Assembly: GCF_000007145.1 (NCBI RefSeq) | Contig: NC_003902.1 | Coordinates: 370,325 to 402,324, forward strand | Direction of reading: 5' to 3' | Origin: Xanthomonas campestris pv. campestris str. ATCC 33913 | GTDB lineage: Bacteria; Pseudomonadota; Gammaproteobacteria; Xanthomonadales; Xanthomonadaceae | DNA length: 32,000 bases | Shown: positions 9,457 through 30,190 of the stretch, one piece after another | How the letters are laid out: every line of letters starts with the position of its first letter | Numbering within the stretch: position 1 is the stretch's first letter | The notes under the pieces: generated by a model | Told to the model about the DNA's origin: nothing | Database searches by the model: none | The model's input: only the letters and a program-made list of their open reading frames with translations | Position numbers and translations under genes: made by a program

Positions 9457-9515
9457 AAAAGTTACCGACGCAAGCACTGCGCCAGCGGTGTCATCCATTG
9501 GCTATCATCTCGCCG

Positions 9516-10367
9516 ATGCGCTCTGACTACATCCTCACCCTGTCCTGCCCCGACCGTACCGGCATCGTCTATCGCGTGACCGGTCTGTTGTTCGATCTTG
9601 CCTGCAATATTCTCGACGCCCAGCAATTTGGCGACGACGAGAGCGGGCGGTTTTTCCTGCGCGTGCATTTCGACAAGCCGCCGCGAACTGACATCGCGCA
9701 GCTGGAGCAACAGTTCTCACAGCTGGCCGCCGGTTTTGAAATGACCTGGCAGCTGCACGATGCGCGCCGCCGCGCGCGGCTGCTGGTGCTGGTGAGCAAG
9801 CAGGGCCACTGCCTCAACGATCTGCTGTTCCGCATGCATAGCCGGCAGTTGCCGGTGGATATCGTGGCGGTGGTCTCCAACCACACCGACTTCGCACCGC
9901 TGGCGGCGTCCTACGGCATCGCCTTCCACCACCTGCCGGTGAGCGCAGACACGCGCGCCGAACAGGAAACGCAGCTGCTCGCGCTGGTCGAGCGCCTGCA
10001 GGTGGACCTGGTAGTGCTGGCGCGCTACATGCAGATCCTTTCGCCTGCACTGTGCCGCGCATTGGCCGGGCGTGCGATCAACATCCACCACAGCTTCCTG
10101 CCCAGTTTCAAGGGCGCCCAGCCGTATCACCAGGCGCACGCGCGCGGGGTCAAGATCATCGGCGCCACCGCGCACTACGTCACCGAAGACCTGGACGAAG
10201 GCCCGATCATCGAACAGGACGTCGCCCGCGTGGACCACGCCATGACCCCGCGCGACCTGGTGCGCCTGGGCAGCGACACCGAATCGCTGGTGCTGGCACG
10301 CGCGGTACGCCGCCATGTCGAACACCGCATCGTGCTCAACGGGCACCGTACGGTGGTGTTTCGCTAG
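9516..10367 (+). CDS. purU: formyltetrahydrofolate deformylase
   Basis: N-terminal ACT domain (YILTLSCPDRTGIVYRVTGLLFDLACNILDAQQF) plus a formyltransferase core (NIHHSFLPSFKGAQPYHQA, GATAHYVTEDLDEGPII). ATG 9516 is preferred over TTG 9498. Confidence 0.92.
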   Translation: MRSDYILTLSCPDRTGIVYRVTGLLFDLACNILDAQQFGDDESGRFFLRVHFDKPPRTDIAQLEQQFSQLAAGFEMTWQLHDARRRARLLVLVSKQGHCLNDLLFRMHSRQLPVDIVAVVSNHTDFAPLAASYGIAFHHLPVSADTRAEQETQLLALVERLQVDLVVLARYMQILSPALCRALAGRAINIHHSFLPSFKGAQPYHQAHARGVKIIGATAHYVTEDLDEGPIIEQDVARVDHAMTPRDLVRLGSDTESLVLARAVRRHVEHRIVLNGHRTVVFR

Positions 10368-12230: not shown

Positions 12231-12527
12231 TAAATCTCTTGTACGTCATGCGAAAACCAAACGCTGAGTCGGCCTAGCGCGGTGCCTAACTGATCGCGCG
12301 ACACGCCATGAATCCAGCTGTGGAGGCTCGGTGGCGGCATCCATGCAACCACGTGGTCCCGCAAGCGTGAGGGCGCCGCACCAAAAAGGAGTCCGCAGCT
12401 AGGTCACAGCGGGCCATCGCGCTAGTTACATTGGCCTGCCGATGTGCGTCACAACTACACGAGAGCCAGCGAATCAGAAGAACGGCGTGCGCTTCTAGCA
12501 CCATGTGCACCGACACCCTCGACTGGT

Positions 12528-12845: not shown

Positions 12846-14813
12846 TCACTTCGCCGCGTTGGCGTTCATCACCGCGTTGCGGCTGGCGTCCAGGTATTGC
12901 GCCGGGTCGCGCATGCCGGTGGTGTGGCATTGCCCGGTGGTGTGGCCCCGGTTTACGCCGCCCGGCAGCTGCGCATTGGCCTGCTCCACGGTGCCGTCTT
13001 CGGGGTCGTTCAAGACCAGGTCCGAGGCGGCGTTGCAGTAGTCGTTGGTGTACCAGTTGGTCTTGGCGAACGAGGTCGTGTAGTAGTTGACCTTGGCGCG
13101 CGCATCGGCGGGAATGCCGGCCAGCCAGGCCTTGGCGCCGTCGTAGGTGAGGTCGGTGTTGCTGCCGCACCCAACGCCGAACCACGAACCCACTGCAGCC
13201 AGAATGCCGGACAGGTTGGTGCCCTGGTACGGCGTGCCTACCGACTGCATCACGCGCCCACCGGTGGCGTTATCCAGCCCGCTCCAGTAGTAGGTGTACA
13301 GATGCAGCGCGGCCATGCCGCCCTGGCTGTGCGCCACCGTGGCGAACGAGGACCACTGGCTGGCGAACTGCGCCAAACGCTGTGCGAATTGATCGTTGCT
13401 GCGGTTCTGCTTGGCATCGATAAACGACGAGGCGTTGCTGAACTGCGCTTCCGGCCACACGCCGTTGGAGCAGTACCCATGCACCAGCACCAGCCGCGAT
13501 CCGGCCGCCTGCGGTTGCGCCAGTGCACTGGCAGTGGCCAGCGTGCGTGGGCGCGGCCCCATGCGCATGCTTTCATCGATGCCGGCCGTGGCGCGCGCAA
13601 TACTCGCCCGGCGCAGTGCAGGCAGCTGCAGCTGCAGCGGCAGCGGCAGCGTGTCGGCCTGTGCCAACGGGATGTAATGGTCCGGGTCTTCGATGCGCAG
13701 GCCGCGCAGCGTGAACGGTGCACGCGCACCGGCACGCGCCACCCAGCGCTCGTCCAGGCTCAACGGCAGCTGGCCTTGCTGCGGTGTGAGCATGCCGCCG
13801 ATCCAGGCCACCGGAATCTGCTTGCCCTTGGCGTCGGTGCCCCACACCTGACCGAACACGCGGTAATGCGTGGGCGCCTGCCCGCGTGCGGCGATCGGCA
13901 GCCCGATACTCAGGCGCGTGCCGTCCGCCGCGCGTGCGCTGAGCGCGTTGCCGAGTAGACGCACAGAGGTGTCCAGCACGGGTAATACGTGCTCGCTGGT
14001 ACGCACGAACGGCTGCCCGGCCTGGTCGCGGCCATGCACGATCACCTGTGCGATCCAGGTGCCGGCACTGGTCGGCTGAAAGCTGCCGCCATACACGCCA
14101 TCGCCGGCAGCGCCGTCGTCGTGCTTGCCGTCATCGGCCATCGCAAACGTGCGCGCCGTGCCCTGTGGATCGAGCACGCGCAGGCTGGCCTGATCGATCT
14201 GCCCGGCCTGGCCAGCCAATAAGCCCGCGCCTTGTGCATCGCTGCCGCTGAGCAGCGCATTGAGCGTCAGCGACTGGCCCACCTGCTGGTGGCGATGCCG
14301 TGGATAGGAGGCCAGCTGCGTGCGCGGGTCGCCTTCCATCAACACATAGCCACGTTGCGCCGTGGGCGAGGCCGACTGCAGCGTCAGCGACCACACACCG
14401 TTCTGCGCAGCGTCCACTGCATAGCGCATGCCGCTGGTGCCGCTGTCGGCACTGCCGAGCCGTGTGCGTTGTGCTTGCAGTTGCGGCGCTGCTGCGGCGC
14501 GCGCGCCGGCAACGCGCGGTGCGGCCACGGCCGCGTCCCACTGCTGGTCACCGGCCAGCACCATGAAACGCAGGTGGCCGTTTTCCACCGGCAGGCTGCC
14601 CTGCCAGCGTGCACTGGCACCGGCCGGTGCGAGCTCCACCGGCAGTAATGCGCTTTTCGAAAGGATGGCTGATTCCGCCGGTTCGGGTGCGCGCATCTGC
14701 GCGAACTCTTCTGGCGGGCCGGCCAATTGTTTGGGCTGTAGCTCGGCCGCGCCCAGGGGCGCGGCGATGAGCGAGAGGGCGCACGACAACGACAACAGCG
14801 ACGGCGTATGCAT
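12846..14813 (-). CDS. secreted two-domain protein: N-terminal beta-rich domain plus C-terminal alpha/beta-hydrolase (lipase/esterase-like)
   Basis: Start at ATG 14813 gives MHTPSLLSLSCALSLIAAPLGAAE (signal peptide). The C-terminal part has LVLVHGYCS and the nucleophile elbow AHSQGG (GxSxG type). The middle part has DDGKHDDGAAGDGVYGGSF, a motif I associate with choice-of-anchor/Ig-like surface domains. Confidence 0.7.
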   Translation of the reverse strand: MHTPSLLSLSCALSLIAAPLGAAELQPKQLAGPPEEFAQMRAPEPAESAILSKSALLPVELAPAGASARWQGSLPVENGHLRFMVLAGDQQWDAAVAAPRVAGARAAAAPQLQAQRTRLGSADSGTSGMRYAVDAAQNGVWSLTLQSASPTAQRGYVLMEGDPRTQLASYPRHRHQQVGQSLTLNALLSGSDAQGAGLLAGQAGQIDQASLRVLDPQGTARTFAMADDGKHDDGAAGDGVYGGSFQPTSAGTWIAQVIVHGRDQAGQPFVRTSEHVLPVLDTSVRLLGNALSARAADGTRLSIGLPIAARGQAPTHYRVFGQVWGTDAKGKQIPVAWIGGMLTPQQGQLPLSLDERWVARAGARAPFTLRGLRIEDPDHYIPLAQADTLPLPLQLQLPALRRASIARATAGIDESMRMGPRPRTLATASALAQPQAAGSRLVLVHGYCSNGVWPEAQFSNASSFIDAKQNRSNDQFAQRLAQFASQWSSFATVAHSQGGMAALHLYTYYWSGLDNATGGRVMQSVGTPYQGTNLSGILAAVGSWFGVGCGSNTDLTYDGAKAWLAGIPADARAKVNYYTTSFAKTNWYTNDYCNAASDLVLNDPEDGTVEQANAQLPGGVNRGHTTGQCHTTGMRDPAQYLDASRNAVMNANAAK

Positions 14814-15089
14814 GGCAACAGCGCTCCTTGGAGTTGCAAAGTGATGCACTGCGATCGAACACAGCGGCACCGGATGCAGCGCCCCCTCGCTGCGATTCGC
14901 AGTCGGTTATACCCCGCATGCATGACAGTGCCGCTGTGCGCTGCAACACCTCACGCGCAACAAACAACCCTGCAGAAATAAATAGTACAGAGTGTGATCC
15001 AGGTCGTGGACCTGCCGATTCTTCGCACCTGCAGGCCGCAGAAAACCAGAGGTCTGCGGTTGATGGCGAACCCCGAAACTTGGCGGGTG

Positions 15090-15962
15090 TCAGTCCGCCA
15101 ATGGACGCGCGTGGCGGGAGCGGTACTGCTCAACCCACGCGACAGACTGTGCGATGCCGCCGAATGGATAGAAGTGCAGGCTGACGTCTCCATGCGCTTC
15201 GCTGAGGCCGGCGGTGAGGCGATCCACAAAGCGATCCGGCCCCGCAGTCCCGAACAGCTTGCCGAGCGAGATGCCGTACTTGGAGAGCATCGATGCACAT
15301 GCGCCAACACCGCACCGTGCGGCATAGCGTGCGAGCACTGCGACGCCCGCAGGACCCGGCACGCCCACATGCACGGGATGGGCAATGCCACGCGCGCGCA
15401 GCGCCTCCAACCACGTCAGCACAGTGTCGGCATCGAACGCGAATTGGGTGACGATCAGCGGCGCCATGCCGCGCTCGGCAATGCTGCGGCACTTGCGTTC
15501 AAGCACATCCCACTGCGCGCTTGCAGGCATGCTCGGATGGCCTTCCGGATGTCCGGCCACGCCGATGGCCTTGATGCCCGAGCGCTCAAACACGCCTGTC
15601 TCGATCAGCGACACGCTATCGGAAAACGGCCCAACCGCAGACGGCGCATCACCCGCGATCACCAGGCAACGTTCAACGCCGGCCTCATCGACGGCGCGCC
15701 TGACGAACGCCTGTAGCGCGTAGCGCGAGGCGATGCGCCGCGCAGACAGGTGCGGCATAGGCGCGAAGCCGAGGGCGCGCACCCTCTGTGCGGCGGCCAG
15801 TCGCGCATCGTCGTTCTGGCTGGGCAGGTAGGGAATGAACATGCTTGAGCCGCGCATGATCTGCGGCGCTGCTGCAGTCAGCGCCGGCATGTCGTGTGCG
15901 CCGACCTCCAATGAATAAGCATCGGTGATGGTGGCGGCGCGGCTGGGGGGATCCGGGGACAT
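15090..15962 (-). CDS. methylenetetrahydrofolate reductase family protein (MetF-like paralogue)
   Basis: Start at ATG 15962 (MSPDPPSR...). VGAHD...IPYLP, VIAGD, GVAGHPEGHP and LIVTQFAFD resemble PF02219-type MTHFR motifs. The N-terminal 107 codons of ORF 15090..16283 overlap metR and are spurious. Confidence 0.7.
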   Translation of the reverse strand: MSPDPPSRAATITDAYSLEVGAHDMPALTAAAPQIMRGSSMFIPYLPSQNDDARLAAAQRVRALGFAPMPHLSARRIASRYALQAFVRRAVDEAGVERCLVIAGDAPSAVGPFSDSVSLIETGVFERSGIKAIGVAGHPEGHPSMPASAQWDVLERKCRSIAERGMAPLIVTQFAFDADTVLTWLEALRARGIAHPVHVGVPGPAGVAVLARYAARCGVGACASMLSKYGISLGKLFGTAGPDRFVDRLTAGLSEAHGDVSLHFYPFGGIAQSVAWVEQYRSRHARPLAD

Positions 15963-16077
15963 CAACGGCGGCGCCGTCCTGTGGTGATGAGTGGTTGGCT
16001 CGCGCACATCAGCGTTGATCGTGCGGGAGGGCAGCCATGCAACACGCGCGCCTGTGCGGTGGTGTCCGTCGGTGGAG

Positions 16078-16983
16078 TCACGGCGCAGTGCCGCTGCCAT
16101 TGCCAGGCTGGCGTGCCAGTTCGATAAAGGCGCGCAGGTAGTCGATGGCGATATCTGCCTCGCGCGCCCCCAGAAAAATTTGCTTGGCGATGCCACGTGC
16201 ACCCAGCCGAACCGGCACCACGTCCATCCTGGCGGCATATTCCTCCACCAGCCAGCGCGGCATGGCGGCCACACCGCGGCCACTGGCCACCATCTGCATC
16301 ATGATGTCGGTGGTTTCGATAGCTTTGTGGCGCCTGGGCGTGACACCGGCCGGCAGCAGGAACTGGCTATAGATATCCAACCGCTCCAGGTCCACCGGAT
16401 AGCTGATGAGCACCTCGCGTGTCAGCTGCGGCGGCGTGACGTAGGCGGCCGACGCCAGCGCATGACCGCTGGCCACCACAAGCACCTGCTCGTAGTCGAA
16501 CACCGGCTCGAAGCGCAGCCCGGGCTTGTACAGCGGGTCGGGCGTGACCAGCAGATCGATCTCGTAGCCGAACAGGGCACCAATGCCGCCGAACTGGAAC
16601 TTTTGTTTGACGTCCACATCCACATCCGGCCACGTGGCCAGATAGGGCGCCACCAGTTTGAGCAGCCACTGGTAGCAGGGATGGCATTCCATGCCGATGC
16701 GCAGCGCACCGCGTTCGCCCTGCGCGAACTGCCCCAGGCGCTCTTCGGCCAGATCCAGCTGCGGCAGCACCCGGTTGGCCACCGCCAGCAAATACTGGCC
16801 AGCCTGGGTCAGCCGCAAGCTGCGCCCCTCGCGCAGCCAGACATCGGTGCCCAGCTGCTGCTCCAGCTTTTTCATGCTGTGGCTCAGCGCCGACTGGGTC
16901 AGGTTCAACACGCCTGCGGCGGCCGTCAGCGAGCCCTGCTGCTCGACCTGCTGGACGATGGAAAGATGGATGCGCTCAAGCAT
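16078..16983 (-). CDS. metR: LysR-family activator MetR
   Basis: Colinear similarity to E. coli MetR as I recall it: LTQSALSHSMKKLEQQLG, LRIGMECHPCYQWL, FEPVFDYEQVLVV, RLDIYSQFLLPAGV, IMMQMVASGRGVAAMPRW. Confidence 0.8.
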   Translation of the reverse strand: MLERIHLSIVQQVEQQGSLTAAAGVLNLTQSALSHSMKKLEQQLGTDVWLREGRSLRLTQAGQYLLAVANRVLPQLDLAEERLGQFAQGERGALRIGMECHPCYQWLLKLVAPYLATWPDVDVDVKQKFQFGGIGALFGYEIDLLVTPDPLYKPGLRFEPVFDYEQVLVVASGHALASAAYVTPPQLTREVLISYPVDLERLDIYSQFLLPAGVTPRRHKAIETTDIMMQMVASGRGVAAMPRWLVEEYAARMDVVPVRLGARGIAKQIFLGAREADIAIDYLRAFIELARQPGNGSGTAP

Positions 16984-17080
16984 TCAGATGATCCGAATTC
17001 ATGGATTGTTGAAATAACACCATTTTACTTCATCGAATGCGCGCCCTAGCATCGGGGTTCGTCGTTTTAAGGCCATCTGC
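16984..17080. promoter_or_regulatory. AT-rich divergent promoter region between metR and the FMN reductase, with MetR-box-like dyads
   Basis: The minus strand of 16989-17001 reads TGAATTCGGATCA, one mismatch from TGAA-N5-TTCA. TTCATGGATTGTTGAA (16998-17013) is a TTCA-N8-TGAA dyad. This is the most AT-rich stretch in the neighbourhood. Confidence 0.3.
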
Positions 17081-17674
17081 ATGACTGTCAACGTGCCACA
17101 CCCACTCCGCATCGTTGCGGTGTCCGGCGGGATGCAACGCCCCTCCAAGGCGGCCGCTCTGGCCGAGCACCTGCTGGCATTGATCGCCGCGCAGGTGCCG
17201 TGCGAACAGCATCTGGTGGAACTCGGGGCATTGGCACCGCAGTTCGCGGGTGCGCTCTGGCGCTCCCAGCTGTCCGCAACGGTGGAGCAGGAACTGGTCG
17301 CGGTGGAGCAGGCCGATGTGCTGGTGGTGACCACGCCGGTGTATCGCGGCTCCTTCACCGGGTTGTTCAAGCACTTCTTCGACTTCGTCCATCAAGATGC
17401 CTTGATCGACACGCCCGTCCTGTTGGCGGCCACCGGTGGCAGCGAGCGGCATGCGTTGGTGATCGACCACCAGCTGCGGCCGCTCTTCAGTTTTTTCCAG
17501 GCCCGCACGTTGCCGCTGGGCGTCTATGCAACCGACCGGGATTTTCTGGACTACCGCGTGCACAACGAGGCCCTGGCCGAACGCGCCAGGCTAGCGGTGC
17601 AGCGGGCATTGCCGCTGATCGCAGTGACGCGGCAGGCCAGCGCCATCGCAAAAGAAAACGTGGCCGCGGCTTGA
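17081..17674 (+). CDS. NAD(P)H-dependent FMN reductase (SsuE/MsuE-like)
   Basis: LRIVAVSGGMQRPSK, VVTTPVYRGSFTGLFKHFFD and LAATGGSERHALVIDHQLRPLF are flavodoxin-like FMN_red signatures. Confidence 0.85.
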   Translation: MTVNVPHPLRIVAVSGGMQRPSKAAALAEHLLALIAAQVPCEQHLVELGALAPQFAGALWRSQLSATVEQELVAVEQADVLVVTTPVYRGSFTGLFKHFFDFVHQDALIDTPVLLAATGGSERHALVIDHQLRPLFSFFQARTLPLGVYATDRDFLDYRVHNEALAERARLAVQRALPLIAVTRQASAIAKENVAAA

Positions 17675-17843
17675 GGGCCACTTGCCCACGGGCGCCTGGC
17701 TTGCCACCACGCCGCTGGCGGGCCACCGGGTCCGTTGGCGAATTGCTTGCCGGTCCAGCGTCCCTGCCTCCATCCAGCCAGCATCAACCGCTGCGCTGAA
17801 AACTGCGTTCGTATTGATTTCGAGAACAAGGCGTCAGTGTGCA

Positions 17844-18863
17844 ATGACTCAAGAATTGACCTTCAGCATCAAGAGCCTCCGCTTCGATGAGGACTACCGT
17901 CCCGCGGCCAATACACGCAACACGACGAACTTTGCCAACCTGGCCAGAGGGCAGCGTCGCCAGGAGAATTTGCGCAACACGCTGGCGATGATCAACAACC
18001 GCTTCAACGACCTGGCGCATTGGGATAACCCCAAGCGTGACCGCTACGCTGTCGAACTCGACATCATCTCTGTCGAGATGAAGATCGGTGAGCGCGACAC
18101 AGGCGATGCATTCCCGTTGATCGAGATATTGCAGCCCAGCATCCTCGATCAAACAACCGGCGCGCGTATCGACGGCATTGCAGGGAATAATTTCTCCTCC
18201 TATGTGCGCGACTACGATTTCAGCGTGCTGCTGCCAGCGCACAATCAGGACACATCCAGCTTCAGCCTGCCGGAGGGGTTCGGCAGCCTGCATGGCACGC
18301 TGTTCAAGCAGTTCGTGAACTCGGATACCTACACGGCGCGGTTCGCCAAGCCGCCGGTCATCTGCATCAGCGTCTCCAGCAGCAAGGTCTATCACCGCAC
18401 CGGAAACCGCCACCCCATCCTGGGCGTTGAATACAGGCAGGACGCATTTTCGTTGACGGATCAGTACTTCGAAAAAATGGGCCTGCAGGTGCGTTATTTC
18501 ATGCCGCCGAACAGTGTCGCTCCCTTGGCGTTTTACTTCCTCGGCGACCTGCTGAACGACTACACCAATCTGGAGTTGATCGGCACCATCAGCACCATGG
18601 AGACCTTCCAGAAGATCTACCGGCCGGAAATCTACAACGCCAATTCCGCCGCGGGGACCATCTACCAGCCGAGCCTGAAGCATCAGGATTACTCCGCGAC
18701 CCAGATCGTCTACGACCGGCAAGAGCGCAGTCAGCTCGCGGTGACGCAGGGCAAATTTACCCAGGAGCATTTCATCAAGCCCTACGGGGACATTCTTGAG
18801 CAGTGGGCCTCCAGCCACGCTTTCTCGTCAACACCAACGCAAGACATTGCCCATCATGAATAA
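17844..18863 (+). CDS. DUF1852 family protein (MesD accessory protein)
   Basis: Start at ATG 17844 (MTQELTFSIKSLRFDEDYRP...), 339 aa. I recognise it as the DUF1852 family that co-occurs with short MetE-like synthases. Its stop at 18861-18863 overlaps the next gene by 8 nt. Confidence 0.7.
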   Translation: MTQELTFSIKSLRFDEDYRPAANTRNTTNFANLARGQRRQENLRNTLAMINNRFNDLAHWDNPKRDRYAVELDIISVEMKIGERDTGDAFPLIEILQPSILDQTTGARIDGIAGNNFSSYVRDYDFSVLLPAHNQDTSSFSLPEGFGSLHGTLFKQFVNSDTYTARFAKPPVICISVSSSKVYHRTGNRHPILGVEYRQDAFSLTDQYFEKMGLQVRYFMPPNSVAPLAFYFLGDLLNDYTNLELIGTISTMETFQKIYRPEIYNANSAAGTIYQPSLKHQDYSATQIVYDRQERSQLAVTQGKFTQEHFIKPYGDILEQWASSHAFSSTPTQDIAHHE

Positions 18864-19887
18864 GCTGCTCCCCACCTCCACCGCCGGTAGTTTGCCCAAG
18901 CCGTCCTGGCTCGCGCAGCCCGAGAAACTCTGGTCGCCCTGGAAGCTGCAGGACGAGGAACTGACCGAAGGCAAGCAGGACGCGTTGCGCCTGTCGCTGC
19001 AGGAACAGCAGCACGCCGGTATCGATATCGTCAGCGACGGTGAACAGACCCGCCAGCATTTCGTCACCACCTTCATCGAACACCTCAGCGGCGTCGATTT
19101 CGAAAAGCGTGAGACCGTGCGCATTCGCAATCGCTATGACGCCAGCGTCCCGACCGTTGTTGGCGCGGTGAGCCGGCCCAAGCCCGTCTTCGTGGACGAT
19201 GCCAAGTTCCTCCGCCAGCAAACCCGGCAGCCGATCAAATGGGCGCTGCCCGGCCCGATGACGATGATCGATACCCTTTTTGATGCGCACTACAAAAGCC
19301 GCGAAAAGCTGGCCTGGGAATTTGCGAAGATCCTCAATCAGGAAGCCAAAGAACTCGAAGCTGCTGGCGTGGATATCATCCAGTTCGACGAGCCGGCCTT
19401 CAATGTCTTCTTCGATGAAGTCAACGACTGGGGCGTTGCCACGCTTGAACGCGCGATCGAAGGGCTCAACTGCGAGACCGCCGTCCACATCTGCTATGGC
19501 TACGGCATCAAGGCCAATACCGATTGGAAGCAGACGCTGGGCTCGGAGTGGCGTCAATACGAAGAGTCGTTCCCCAAGCTGCAGGCATCCACTATCGACA
19601 TCGTCTCGCTGGAGTGCCACAACTCGCATGTGCCGATCGATCTGATCGAACTGGTGCGCGGCAAGAAGGTCATGGTCGGCGCCATCGACGTGGCAAGCAA
19701 CACGATCGAAACACCGCAGGAGGTGGCCGACACGCTACGCAAGGCGCTTCGGTTTGTGGATGCCGACAAGCTCTACCCGTCCACCAACTGCGGCATGGCG
19801 CCGCTCGCCCGGCACGTCGCACGCGGCAAACTCAGTGCCCTCAGTGCGGGTGCAGACATCATTCGCGCAGAACTGTCGGCGCAGTAG
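18856..19887 (+). CDS. mesD: core (catalytic-domain-only) cobalamin-independent methionine synthase, MesD-type
   Basis: 343 aa, starting MNKLLPTSTAGSLPKPSWL. It resembles only the MetE C-terminal domain: Zn ligands HIC (VHICYGYG), E (SLECH) and C (STNCGMAP). The N-terminal folate-binding half of MetE is absent. ATG 18856 lies inside the DUF1852 stop region. Confidence 0.8.
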   Translation: MNKLLPTSTAGSLPKPSWLAQPEKLWSPWKLQDEELTEGKQDALRLSLQEQQHAGIDIVSDGEQTRQHFVTTFIEHLSGVDFEKRETVRIRNRYDASVPTVVGAVSRPKPVFVDDAKFLRQQTRQPIKWALPGPMTMIDTLFDAHYKSREKLAWEFAKILNQEAKELEAAGVDIIQFDEPAFNVFFDEVNDWGVATLERAIEGLNCETAVHICYGYGIKANTDWKQTLGSEWRQYEESFPKLQASTIDIVSLECHNSHVPIDLIELVRGKKVMVGAIDVASNTIETPQEVADTLRKALRFVDADKLYPSTNCGMAPLARHVARGKLSALSAGADIIRAELSAQ

Positions 19888-20290
19888 CGCACTGGTGATT
19901 TCGATGGATTGGCTGCCGTCGCATGTGCCGCGCGCTCAGCCTCATGAGGTGGAATCAGGTCGTTTGCGTGTCGAGTGTGCCGCGCGCGTACCTAGGCTGA
20001 GGCATGGTAGCTAACACCGCATGTGATGCTCGGCTGCCATGTGCAACGTCGATCAGGGCCCATGGTTGGCTCCCAGTCCGGGAAGATGGTAGGCCGATAG
20101 TGGGTGTGGCCTGGTTAAACCCTTGCTGCGAGGACTTGCTCGTCAGCGCCATCACTGGCCTTGTTAGGAACTGCACGCGCGGGGCGGCTACGTAACCCCG
20201 CAAGTGAAAAAGCTGCGAATTGAACGCGTTACATGTGGCTAACATTTGGTTGATGTGCGGTACCAAATGGTGCAGAATTTCGCCAACACA

Positions 20291-20343
20291 CCCGCCACGC
20301 CTCTACAGCTTCTGCTGAAAGCGCAATTTGGCGGGTTTTTTTT
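20291..20343 (+). terminator. stem plus T8 tract just upstream of the Abi gene
   Basis: CCCGCCA (20291-20297) pairs with TGGCGGG (20329-20335), followed directly by TTTTTTTT (20336-20343). The loop is long at 31 nt, so this is weak. Confidence 0.3.
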
Positions 20344-20369
20344 GCCTTTGGCACAGGGAGGTGGGGACA

Positions 20370-21290
20370 ATGCAGTACATGAAGGAGGCGTTGGACTACG
20401 CCCAGCAGATTCAGCAGTTGCAGGACCGAGGTCTCGCAATCGCCGATCCCGTCACAGCAGAACTCTATCTGCGGAGGGTTGGTTACTACCGCCTGATGGG
20501 CTATCTGTTTCCTTTGCGAGTTGCAGGCAGCGATACCTATCTGCCGGGCGCGAGCATGGACATCGCGCTCGGACTTTACGAGTTTGATCGTCTTCTGCGC
20601 CATCTTGTAGGCGAAGCCATTGGACATATTGAAGTGGCCACTAGGACGGCAGTGACCTATAAGCTGGCTCACGCCTACGGCAGCTTTGGCCATCGCAACG
20701 CGGCTAATTTCAGGGCAGACGGTGGGGACCGGCGCAGTTTGGGTAATTGGCACGTAATCTGGCTAAGAAAGGTCGACGACGAGGTCAGCCGTGCCCGGGA
20801 GACGTTCATAGAACACTACAGACAGCGATACACCACCCCACCTTTCCCTGAAGTGCCCATTTATATGGCCAGTGAGGTGATATCACTTGGCACGCTGTCC
20901 AAATTGGTGCGTGCCATGCATGGCGTGGATCAAACCGCAATTGCCGCTGAATTTCAGACGGCTGGACCGGTTTTGGTCAGTTGGCTTCATGCCGTCTCCG
21001 TGGTTCGCAACATGGCGGCGCACCATGGTCGGTTGTGGAATCGAGTTCTTGGCGTGTCGCCGATGATTCCCAGGCACGGGATCTGGGCGAGCGCGTCGTC
21101 GGTGGTTCCAGCAAATCGCCTATTTTTTGTGCTGTGCGTGTTGCATCACCTGCTCAAAAGCACTGCGGCCAATGTTACGCACTGGCGGACGACTGTCAGC
21201 AATCACCTGCGCCCTCTTCTGGTCGACGCGTCGCATAGAGCCGGCATGGGAGCCCCGGACAACTGGGAGACGCACGCGCTGTGGAGATGA
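20370..21290 (+). CDS. Abi_2 (AbiD/AbiF-like) abortive-infection family protein
   Basis: Start at ATG 20370 after GGGAGGTGGGG. YLRRVGYYRLMGYLFP and VVRNMAAHHGRLWNR are hallmark Abi_2 motifs. GC is clearly lower than in the flanks. Confidence 0.8.
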   Translation: MQYMKEALDYAQQIQQLQDRGLAIADPVTAELYLRRVGYYRLMGYLFPLRVAGSDTYLPGASMDIALGLYEFDRLLRHLVGEAIGHIEVATRTAVTYKLAHAYGSFGHRNAANFRADGGDRRSLGNWHVIWLRKVDDEVSRARETFIEHYRQRYTTPPFPEVPIYMASEVISLGTLSKLVRAMHGVDQTAIAAEFQTAGPVLVSWLHAVSVVRNMAAHHGRLWNRVLGVSPMIPRHGIWASASSVVPANRLFFVLCVLHHLLKSTAANVTHWRTTVSNHLRPLLVDASHRAGMGAPDNWETHALWR

Positions 21291-30052: not shown

Positions 30053-30190
30053 GCGGCTAACAAAACGTAGCGAGCAGCCGTCAGGTGGGTGCGGACGGCG
30101 CGGAGGAACCGCAGTGTACGGGGGTACATGCGGATTCCGAGCGCCGGCCGCGCCCGCCTGACGGCTGCGCAGCAGTTTTGACAGCTGCTC
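30053..30190. repeat. long imperfect palindrome (about 138 bp) in the spacer upstream of the VOC gene
   Basis: The 21-nt arms 30074-30094 and 30148-30168 pair completely if two T.G pairs are allowed. The interior folds further (CGGCGC/GCGCCG, GGAA/TTCC, CCGCA(G)TGTAC-GGGG-GTACATGCGG). The outer flanks GGCTAACAAAAC and GTTTTGACAGCT are partly complementary. Confidence 0.6.

Follow-up and report, generated by a model that had tools for sequence, protein, structure and literature searches.

The mesX-mesD locus of Xanthomonas campestris: a linked flavin reductase gene, a MetR-like regulator gene and a gene for a predicted type 4 methylenetetrahydrofolate reductase

Introduction

What supplies the methyl group of methionine when neither folate nor cobalamin (B12) is needed, and why should a relative of MetF stand beside the genes for such a route? 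Both questions are raised by a locus of Xanthomonas campestris pv. campestris ATCC 33913, which occupies positions 15090 to 19887 of a 32,000-nucleotide stretch of the chromosome (NC_003902.1, positions 370,325 to 402,324; this whole stretch is called the window, and its own numbering is used throughout). The locus holds genes for a core methionine synthase (MesD), its partner MesX (DUF1852), an MsuE-type flavin mononucleotide (FMN) reductase, a MetR-like regulator and a methylenetetrahydrofolate reductase (MTHFR) relative, XCC0314. Our reading, to which we give a probability of about 0.7 for the regulator, MesD, MesX and reductase steps taken jointly, is that these are MetR-controlled divergent operons for methionine synthesis without B12 or methyl-folate. 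XCC0314, in turn, is predicted to oxidize 5-methyl-tetrahydrofolate (5-methyl-THF) and not to supply methyl groups.

MesD and MesX were defined by Price et al. in 2021 (PMC7857596). According to mutant data from Acinetobacter baylyi and Sphingomonas koreensis, MesD depends on MesX and O2 but on neither MetF nor B12, and mesD plus mesX of S. koreensis rescued Escherichia coli ΔmetE and ΔmetF strains, aerobically only. The same study noted a linked flavin reductase and proposed flavin/O2 chemistry, citing ACIAD3522 and Ga0059261_2931. MesD and MesX thus make up an aerobic route to methionine that requires neither folate nor B12, and the source of the methyl group is its central question; among the later papers searched, we found none that settles the chemistry. 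The route also matters ecologically, e.g., for growing where B12 is lacking and for withstanding N2O, a tolerance reported for MesD-dependent strains in a 2026 paper. The supplements of the 2021 study do not mention Xanthomonas. The X. campestris locus had been treated in 2014 by Leyn et al. (PMC4239095), who identified XCC0315 as MetR and XCC0314 as a MetR-controlled metF paralogue and who assigned "PF08908-metE2" to the MetR regulon in five to seven taxa.

The system is therefore of a known kind, and the locus itself is already in the literature (2014, 2021) and in databases. All five proteins occur letter for letter in public X. campestris pv. campestris records (entries for ATCC 33913, 8004 and B100), where they are annotated as methylenetetrahydrofolate reductase, LysR/MetR, FMN reductase, DUF1852 protein and methionine synthase. 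Three of the five have listed ATCC 33913 accessions (AAM39633, which is the XCC0314 protein, AAM39635 and AAM39636), and from the consecutive accession numbers msuE, mesX and mesD would be XCC0316 to XCC0318. What is new relative to the published work is the type 4 identity of XCC0314, the recurrence of MTHFR relatives and queH beside mesX-mesD, the dichotomy of the linked reductases and the conserved operator. A first-pass annotation, made from the DNA letters and a list of open reading frames (ORFs), had described the five genes as a MesD-type methionine synthase locus. Its account of the 2021 study agreed with that paper, and its suggestion that reduced flavin and O2 generate or activate the methyl donor is a restatement of the proposal made there.

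Results

MesD and MesX

All five genes were recovered at the annotated positions by ORF listing and translation, and profile searches bore out the families that had been named, with matches to PF08908, Meth_synt_2 and FMN reductase models far beyond chance. As judged from its sequence, the 343-residue product of the gene at 18856 to 19887 (plus strand) is MesD, a Zn-dependent homocysteine methyltransferase that lacks the folate domain. It scored 706 bits against NF006589 (cutoff, 392) and 661 bits against PDB entry 3RPD, to which it aligned nearly identically over residues 3 to 342, whereas full-length MetE structures reached at most 89 bits; 3RPD is the entry cited as the MesD structure in the 2021 study (PMC7857596). 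PF01717 (Meth_synt_2), over residues 5 to 328, was the only Pfam domain above threshold. PF08267 gave 21 bits, under its cutoff and with no segment that passed the E-value threshold alone, and the N-terminal folate-binding half is therefore missing. Alignment to 3RPD located the Zn ligands (His211, Cys213, Glu253 and Cys312) and the homocysteine-binding residues (Ser12, Glu63 and Asp178).

By the published thresholds, a MesD scores no less than 390 bits (BLASTP) or 560 bits (phmmer) against ACIAD3523; the comparison was made here through the orthologue of A. baylyi DSM 14961 rather than the ADP1 protein itself. The window protein is 88% identical to that orthologue and scored 636 bits against it in tblastn and 693 bits in phmmer. 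These values, together with the 3RPD match, place it with MesD and not with full-length MetE, as the first-pass annotation had held.

The gene at 17844 to 18863 (plus strand) encodes the 339-residue MesX, which matched PF08908 (now "Putative oxygenase MesX") with 620 bits, residues 1 to 323 covering profile positions 1 to 323 of 323. Identity among MesX proteins is 71 to 76% across Proteobacteria and Actinobacteria. The X. campestris protein has a single cysteine, Cys174, and this residue was invariant in a 26-sequence alignment, as were His150 and His190. An AlphaFold model was obtained with a predicted local distance difference test score (pLDDT) of 71.5 and a predicted template modeling score (pTM) of 0.77. 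Foldseek found no fold match for this model in the PDB (best E = 0.2, template modeling score below 0.15), a profile search against PDB sequences was empty, and Pfam at E ≤ 10 was also negative. Because neither the model nor the profile searches produced a PDB match, MesX, if it is an FMNH2/O2 enzyme, would represent a new fold for such chemistry.

Order and spacing of mesX and mesD

When one genome of each species was scanned with a sequence pattern, at least 593 mesX loci were found. The 80 most similar loci, all from Proteobacteria, were compared together with their 10-kb flanks; this selection is itself a bias, and counts out of 80 refer throughout to these species-level mesX loci other than the window. 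mesD was the next gene 3′ of mesX in 79 of the 80, and in the remaining one (L070) the contig ends within mesD. The same two families in the same order, with the same Zn and homocysteine residues and a flavin reductase in the operon, are found in the characterized systems of A. baylyi (ACIAD3523/3524) and S. koreensis (PMC7857596). Relative to the A. baylyi type strain, MesD of the window is 88% and MesX 71% identical. The window differs in that its reductase is of the MsuE type (PF03358) and lies upstream, whereas that of A. baylyi belongs to PF01613 and lies downstream, and in its MetR-like regulator, its type 4 MTHFR and a 12-residue tail on MesX; a survey of MetR regulons detected no MetR orthologue in strain ADP1 (PMC4239095).

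The tail accounts for the contact between the two genes. The mesD start codon (ATG at 18856) lies inside the end of mesX (...CAT CAT GAA TAA), and the 8-bp overlap is present as first described. It had been taken as a sign of coupled translation and stoichiometric partnership, and that interpretation did not hold. None of the 80 loci has such an overlap; the spacer, counted from ORFs, is 20 to 46 bp in 68 loci with a median of 27 bp (tblastn alignments ran through stop codons in 18 loci). The mesX frame of four other Xanthomonas species stops at TAA or TGA, at the place where X. campestris has TCG (18825 to 18827), and the lost stop gives a 12-residue read-through tail (18825 to 18863) that runs into mesD and is specific to X. 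campestris. MesX accordingly has 339 residues in all X. campestris entries and 325 to 328 in other species. The overlap, as far as the compared sequences go, stems from a lost mesX stop codon that is peculiar to X. campestris, with no sign of conserved translational coupling. Close partnership of the two proteins is nevertheless argued by the invariant order and adjacency of their genes, to which the overlap adds nothing.

Two side observations concern these genes. In Comamonadaceae-type loci (L009, L018, L022, L025, L036, L046, L051, L052, L054, L058, L059 and L075) MesD is just 53 to 58% identical to the usual MesD, which is about 90% conserved, and stands near the published 390-bit threshold beside a normal MesX, MetR and MsuE. 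In the window, the mesX-mesD segment (18001 to 20000) has a G+C content of 0.58 to 0.60, compared with 0.65 to 0.69 in the surrounding chromosome.

Flavin reductases of two families

The gene at 17081 to 17674 (plus strand; 197 residues) encodes an FMN reductase that matched PF03358 with 88 bits and the MsuE-type model TIGR03566 with 251.8 bits (cutoff, 212.5). A gene of this type lies directly 5′ of mesX in 31/80 loci, and a gene of an unrelated family, PF01613 (Flavin_Reduct, the A. baylyi type), lies 3′ of mesD in 29/80. The first-pass expectation that a reductase is linked to DUF1852 in other genomes was thus borne out, by two families and not one. No locus carries both, and 20 carry neither (Fisher's exact P = 6e-9, a value that ignores phylogeny). 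The flanks, about 1.4 Mb in all, held just one such reductase gene outside the mesX operons. The order mesX-mesD-PF01613 was also seen in a Mycolicibacterium locus, by which the PF01613 form extends to the Actinobacteria. In Acinetobacter baumannii, a 2026 paper reported that the DUF1852 gene (ABUW_3198) and a flavin reductase gene two locus tags away (ABUW_3196) are both repressed by B12, the former about 300-fold.

That two unrelated reductases fill one slot is, of all the comparative arguments, the one that speaks most strongly for reduced flavin as a probable substrate of the system. We looked for a third reductase family in the 20 loci that lack both, and eight flanking ORFs proved to encode NYN or deaminase proteins or proteins without a Pfam match. 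Since these 20 loci have no linked reductase and since mesX and mesD function in E. coli, host reductases can take the place of that encoded in the operon. A sulfonate or methanesulfonate monooxygenase gene (msuD) was not found among the annotated ORFs of the window, which do not comprise every ORF, and the gene context suggests MesX as the partner of the reductase.

The regulator and its conserved operator

The gene at 16078 to 16983 (minus strand; XCC0315, 301 residues) encodes a LysR-family protein with HTH_1 and LysR_substrate domains. Against the MetR model NF011950 it scored 221 bits, which is below the cutoff of 382, and the runner-up family scored 98 bits. Within 5 kb, 45/80 loci encode a MetR-like regulator (at least 200 bits), and of the 31 msuE-type loci 29 do so. 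The arrangement had been described as a divergent MetR; this is true of metR relative to msuE-mesX-mesD, and the MTHFR-like gene is codirectional with metR on the minus strand.

The window regulator is 88 to 96% identical to those of most of the 29 msuE-type cassettes. Recent horizontal transfer was considered as a cause of this identity and rejected, the nucleotide identity being about 86% and the other cassette genes standing at 71 to 78%. Conservation of the regulator is instead attributed, from these sequence comparisons, to purifying selection that is unusually strong for a LysR regulator. Between Xanthomonas and Betaproteobacteria (e.g., L009, L014, L036 and L046) it exceeds that of MesX (71 to 76%) and of the reductase (72 to 91%).

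The 97-bp spacer between metR and msuE contains two sites. The first, ATGATCCGAATTCAT at 16988 to 17002, was read from the sequence, is conserved in the aligned intergenic regions and has one mismatch to the MetR consensus ATGAA-N5-TTCAT (PMC4239095). The second is a 23-bp near-perfect palindrome, TGAAATAACACCATTTTACTTCA at 17010 to 17032, which is a predicted operator by virtue of its conservation across species. It is the sole match in the window, where shuffled sequences lead one to expect 0, and a degenerate form of it occurs once, in the equivalent spacer, in 30/80 loci of Gamma- and Betaproteobacteria and in 3 further loci. Its right arm overlaps a −35-like element (TTTACT, 17024 to 17029), which is followed 17 bp on by a −10-like element (TAGCAT, 17047 to 17052). 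The palindrome is therefore a probable activation site of the regulator, in a layout usual for LysR proteins. A scan of 14800 to 20400 with the sigma-70 consensus gave no match, and cross-species conservation is the sole basis of the proposed promoter. Neither a riboswitch nor a leader RNA was found with Rfam in the msuE-mesX spacer (170 bp) or the promoter region, at the gathering threshold or at E ≤ 1. Ottowia (L025) carries the 23-bp operator a second time, at 12284 to 12306, before a probable full-length metE.

The earlier account of the Xanthomonadales MetR regulon (PMC4239095) covers the same locus and the ATGAA-N5-TTCAT box at 16988 to 17002. The palindrome at 17010 to 17032 is an additional and better-conserved element. 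The 2014 account also differs in that core MetE was not seen as folate independent, the reductase or PF08908 gene was named a "hypothetical reductase," and XCC0314 was regarded as an ordinary metF.

XCC0314 as a predicted type 4 MTHFR

The adjacent metF-like gene, XCC0314 (15090 to 15962, minus strand; 290 residues), had appeared puzzling in a pathway for which folate is dispensable. The puzzle depended on its being an ordinary MetF, and this did not survive comparison. XCC0314 scored 43 bits against PF02219, 42 bits against TIGR00676 (cutoff, 293.7) and 19 bits against NF006950 (cutoff, 382). The best structural relative was instead PDB entry 7XG9, the S6MTHFR of Sphingobium lignivorans SYK-6, with 230 bits, E = 3.8e-67 and 39.6% identity over the full length, whereas canonical MTHFR structures reached at most 48 bits. 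S6MTHFR oxidizes 5-methyl-THF, does not use NADH, for which Leu48 blocks the site, and showed no reduction of methylene-THF; S6MTHFR and N20MTHFR are the enzymes for which methyl-THF oxidation without NADH has been established (Yu et al., 2025; PMC11868366). XCC0314 retains the S6MTHFR residues E21, L48, P49, R78, D107, Q175, C219, P268 and F269, including the catalytic Glu, Asp and Gln, as well as the three motif regions (loop β2-α3, helix α8 and loop β8-α11), with F215 replaced by Tyr. All 16 metR-linked copies keep the diagnostic residues, with two exceptions: Tyr stands at position 215, or Cys in a single Stenotrophomonas copy, and Ala replaces Pro49 in nine copies. XCC0314 is thus predicted to be a type 4 (S6MTHFR-like) enzyme that would oxidize 5-methyl-THF and would not supply methyl groups. 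Since such an enzyme is not expected to make methyl-THF, the puzzle of the MetF paralogue largely dissolves. The canonical metF of X. campestris is XCC0739, under the SAM-related regulator SamR, and its metH is split and B12 dependent (PMC4239095).

A type 4 gene was linked to mesX in 16/80 loci: in all five Xanthomonas and all eight Stenotrophomonas loci, one of six in Achromobacter, one of three in Janthinobacterium and the single one from Hydrogenophaga. The five-gene arrangement, which had been put forward as a model locus, occurs in 16/80 loci and is one of several. In Stenotrophomonas, Achromobacter and Janthinobacterium the gene lies directly 3′ of metR, with a gap of 0 to 120 bp or an 11-bp overlap, and that of a metagenomic relative is likewise close behind metR (0 to 40 bp or an 11-bp overlap, a range shared with Stenotrophomonas and Janthinobacterium). 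No second operator was found 5′ of XCC0314 in the window. Because the gene follows metR closely in relatives and has no operator of its own, it is likely cotranscribed with metR. Two more close homologues of XCC0314 occur in the same five-gene arrangement, and the sampled homologues of 72 to 75% identity all lie within a mesD-mesX-msuE/metR cassette.

The setting of XCC0314 differs from that of S6MTHFR, which is encoded in a ligM-metF-ligH operon with a THF-dependent demethylase. No gene for such a demethylase was found among the annotated large ORFs of the window, in the neighborhoods of three further loci (L081 to L083, searched with Pfam) or in the conserved flanking clusters of the 80 loci. 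A gene for a PurU-like formyl-THF deformylase (ACT and Formyl_trans_N domains; 9498 to 10367) lies 5 kb from XCC0314, separated from it by genes for an AraC regulator, a short-chain dehydrogenase/reductase and a 674-residue secreted protein; its proximity is probably coincidental.

Other MTHFR relatives and queH

A noncanonical gene of the MTHFR superfamily, of one of three kinds, was present in 22/80 loci. The linkage of a MetF-like gene to DUF1852 that had been anticipated thus recurs, but 58 of the 80 loci have no such relative nearby. Besides the type 4 genes, Rhizobium tropici (L024, 12685 to 13581) encodes a type 4-like protein of 37% identity after mesX-mesD-PF01613, in which the catalytic Asp107 is replaced by Gly and Leu48-Pro49 by Ile-Gly. 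The third kind is a fusion of a remote MTHFR domain (PF02219) with a Cys-rich PF12225 domain, which has no relative in the PDB and reached the cutoff of no NCBIfam model. Fusion proteins of 484 to 493 residues are encoded after mesX-mesD-PF01613 in five loci of Burkholderia and Achromobacter (L021, L032, L044, L048 and L060, at about 12.7 to 14.3 kb), and the family ranges from 484 to 513 residues overall when L085 and L088 to L090 are included. The gene is convergent with mesX-mesD-PF01613 in Collimonas; in Pseudomonas aeruginosa it follows a LysR gene and is divergent from metE-queH-mesX-mesD; in Pseudomonas putida and Pseudomonas syringae it is divergent from full-length metE; and it is unlinked in two of six extra members sampled. 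Members of the fusion family are thus found beside folate-dependent MetE as well, and gene context alone does not decide whether these paralogues act oxidatively or reductively.

In the P. putida locus (L088) the gene order is FabV-like reductase, thiolase, fusion gene, cobW and cstA, which matches what we take to be the order around PP_4638 in strain KT2440. The fusion family is thus probably that of ACIAD1783 and PP_4638, two genes mentioned in the 2021 study solely as a caveat (PMC7857596). That ACIAD1783 and PP_4638 encode type 4 enzymes was considered and dropped, the L088 neighborhood pointing to the PF02219-PF12225 fusion family instead.

The product of queH is a B12-independent epoxyqueuosine reductase, an alternative to QueG. 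A queH gene (PF02677) lies beside mesX-mesD in 12/80 loci and in two extra loci (L001 to L005, L021, L025, L035, L036, L048, L053 and L061, and L085 and L089), in at least four gene orders. Five other Xanthomonas species and Hydrogenophaga have it between metR and the type 4 MTHFR gene. It is cleanly absent from the X. campestris window, where homology to X. pisi breaks at 16047/16055 and X. pisi has 685 additional bases. Published papers list QueH among the cobalamin-independent enzymes, and its recruitment in four gene orders fits a regulon for B12 scarcity.

Discussion

A model for the locus

In the model that we favor, a MetR-like regulator would bind at 16988 to 17032 and drive msuE-mesX-mesD to the right and metR-XCC0314 to the left. 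The conservation of the sites is observed here; binding and the response to homocysteine are carried over from E. coli MetR and from the 2014 regulon study, which itself cited homocysteine activation from the E. coli protein (PMC4239095). MesD would activate homocysteine at its Zn site and transfer the methyl group to give methionine, an activity taken from the orthologues studied in 2021, and MesX would provide the methyl group in a step that depends on O2; that both MesX and O2 are required was likewise shown in that study (PMC7857596). The MsuE-type reductase would use NAD(P)H to form FMNH2 for MesX, in the manner of a two-component flavin monooxygenase. The linkage data argue fairly strongly for this step, in which MesX with FMNH2 and O2 would make or carry the methyl donor. 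SsuE/SsuD, MsuE/MsuD and HpaC/HpaB are similar in that a small NAD(P)H:flavin reductase (SsuE/MsuE, or HpaC of PF01613) stands beside an O2-requiring partner. MesX is unlike the oxygenase components of that class in fold, no oxygenated product is known, and an output of methyl transfer is without precedent there.

The part proposed for XCC0314 is more tentative. Rather than feeding MesD, it may convert 5-methyl-THF to 5,10-methylene-THF and thereby return folate that canonical MetF (XCC0739) has committed. Under B12 shortage homocysteine would rise and MetR would switch on MesX and MesD, which consume no methyl-THF, while MetH would be idle without B12; an oxidizing MTHFR under the same regulator would then stop folate from accumulating as methyl-THF. 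Such recycling is our best guess for XCC0314, yet a doubtful one. A broader extension is more speculative still, namely, that the locus belongs to a homocysteine-triggered kit for B12 scarcity in which MesX founds a new fold class for FMNH2/O2 chemistry, the three kinds of MTHFR relative are valves against the methyl-folate trap and queH spares B12. If true, the MTHFR valves would be a bacterial countermeasure to that trap.

Several observations weigh against the model or parts of it. None of the known folds of oxygenase components (luciferase-like TIM barrel, acyl-CoA-dehydrogenase-like, etc.) was matched by MesX, and the model that failed to match a flavin-monooxygenase fold is only moderately confident (pLDDT 71.5). 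A linked reductase is lacking in 20/80 loci, and mesX and mesD suffice in E. coli. As to XCC0314, a type 4 MTHFR was not found at 64/80 loci, which makes it an accessory, and its synteny comes mostly from one lineage (Xanthomonas and Stenotrophomonas) with three betaproteobacterial cases. The PF02219-PF12225 fusion stands in Pseudomonas beside full-length MetE, which needs methyl-THF, and MTHFR paralogues of MetR loci may accordingly act reductively. A full-length MetE in X. campestris, if there, would lessen the methyl-folate trap.

Alternative explanations

One alternative gives XCC0314 a different role, that of a second, reductive methylene-THF reductase that MetR induces for MetH or MetE when homocysteine is high and that has no specific tie to MesX and MesD. 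The 2014 study placed XCC0314 in the MetR regulon as a paralogue of metF, which is itself a MetR target in several taxa (PMC4239095). The fusion genes also speak for such a role: in P. putida and P. syringae they diverge from a full-length metE, and in P. aeruginosa one accompanies the metE-queH-mesX-mesD island. However, XCC0314 conserves Leu48, Cys219 and Pro268-Phe269, that is, the NADH block and the oxidizing site; S6MTHFR does not reduce methylene-THF; X. campestris already has a canonical metF in XCC0739; and the sampled homologues of 72 to 75% identity keep to the mesD-mesX-msuE/metR cassette. We therefore consider a reductive role unlikely. An oxidizing role could also serve another pathway, if XCC0314 acted on methyl-THF released by a THF-dependent demethylase encoded elsewhere, for instance during use of methoxylated plant aromatics, and the link to metR reflected the balance of folate pools. 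Type 4 enzymes have been found in bacteria that possess demethylases of the LigM, DesA, CmuAB or Dmt type (PMC11868366), and Xanthomonas is plant associated, but the searches described above found no demethylase-like gene and the conserved partners are metR, msuE, mesX and mesD. This explanation appears quite unlikely.

The reductase, too, might have a task apart from MesX, either in the metabolism of sulfonates or with another monooxygenase or in keeping MesD or its zinc-thiolate site reduced in air. The model that it matches best is that of MsuE, which serves methanesulfonate monooxygenase, and 20/80 loci have no linked reductase. Yet the gene stands in a MetR-controlled operon right 5′ of mesX in 31 loci, an unrelated flavin reductase gene takes its part in 29 others, and the annotated ORFs of the window include no sulfonate monooxygenase gene; we hold such a separate task to be improbable. 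A last alternative keeps the flavin and changes its chemistry. In this proposal MesX would use reduced flavin as a carrier of a one-carbon unit from 5,10-methylene-THF, as ThyX and TrmFO do, and the route would be independent of MetF without being independent of folate, with the MTHFR paralogues feeding or balancing methylene-THF. It would join MetF independence, the flavin reductase and the MTHFR relatives of 22/80 loci in one scheme. Nevertheless, it leaves the O2 requirement (PMC7857596) unexplained, MesX resembles neither ThyX nor TrmFO nor any solved protein in sequence or fold, and 58/80 loci have no MTHFR relative nearby, all of which makes the proposal very improbable.

With respect to the favored model of MetR-controlled, folate- and B12-independent synthesis, the X. 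campestris locus adds no new kind of system and is not more testable than the A. baylyi and S. koreensis models. What it offers is a genetically tractable host with all the parts, from regulator and operator to reductase, MesX, MesD and a type 4 MTHFR, within 4.8 kb. For the biochemistry of MesX, the exclusive recruitment of two reductases supports a need for flavin, and the MTHFR relatives and queH are recurrent passengers.

Neighboring features of the window

Directly 3′ of mesD, at 20291 to 21290, an abiF RNA motif (34.5 bits; gathering score, 37) abuts an Abi_2-like ORF (PF07751, 170 bits). The G+C content of this segment is 0.56, compared with about 0.66 in its flanks, and it looks like a small inserted defense island. 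Farther on, and in keeping with the Xanthomonas origin of the DNA, the Xanthomonas small RNA sX9 (RF02228) was detected at 30055 to 30129 on the minus strand with 95 bits.

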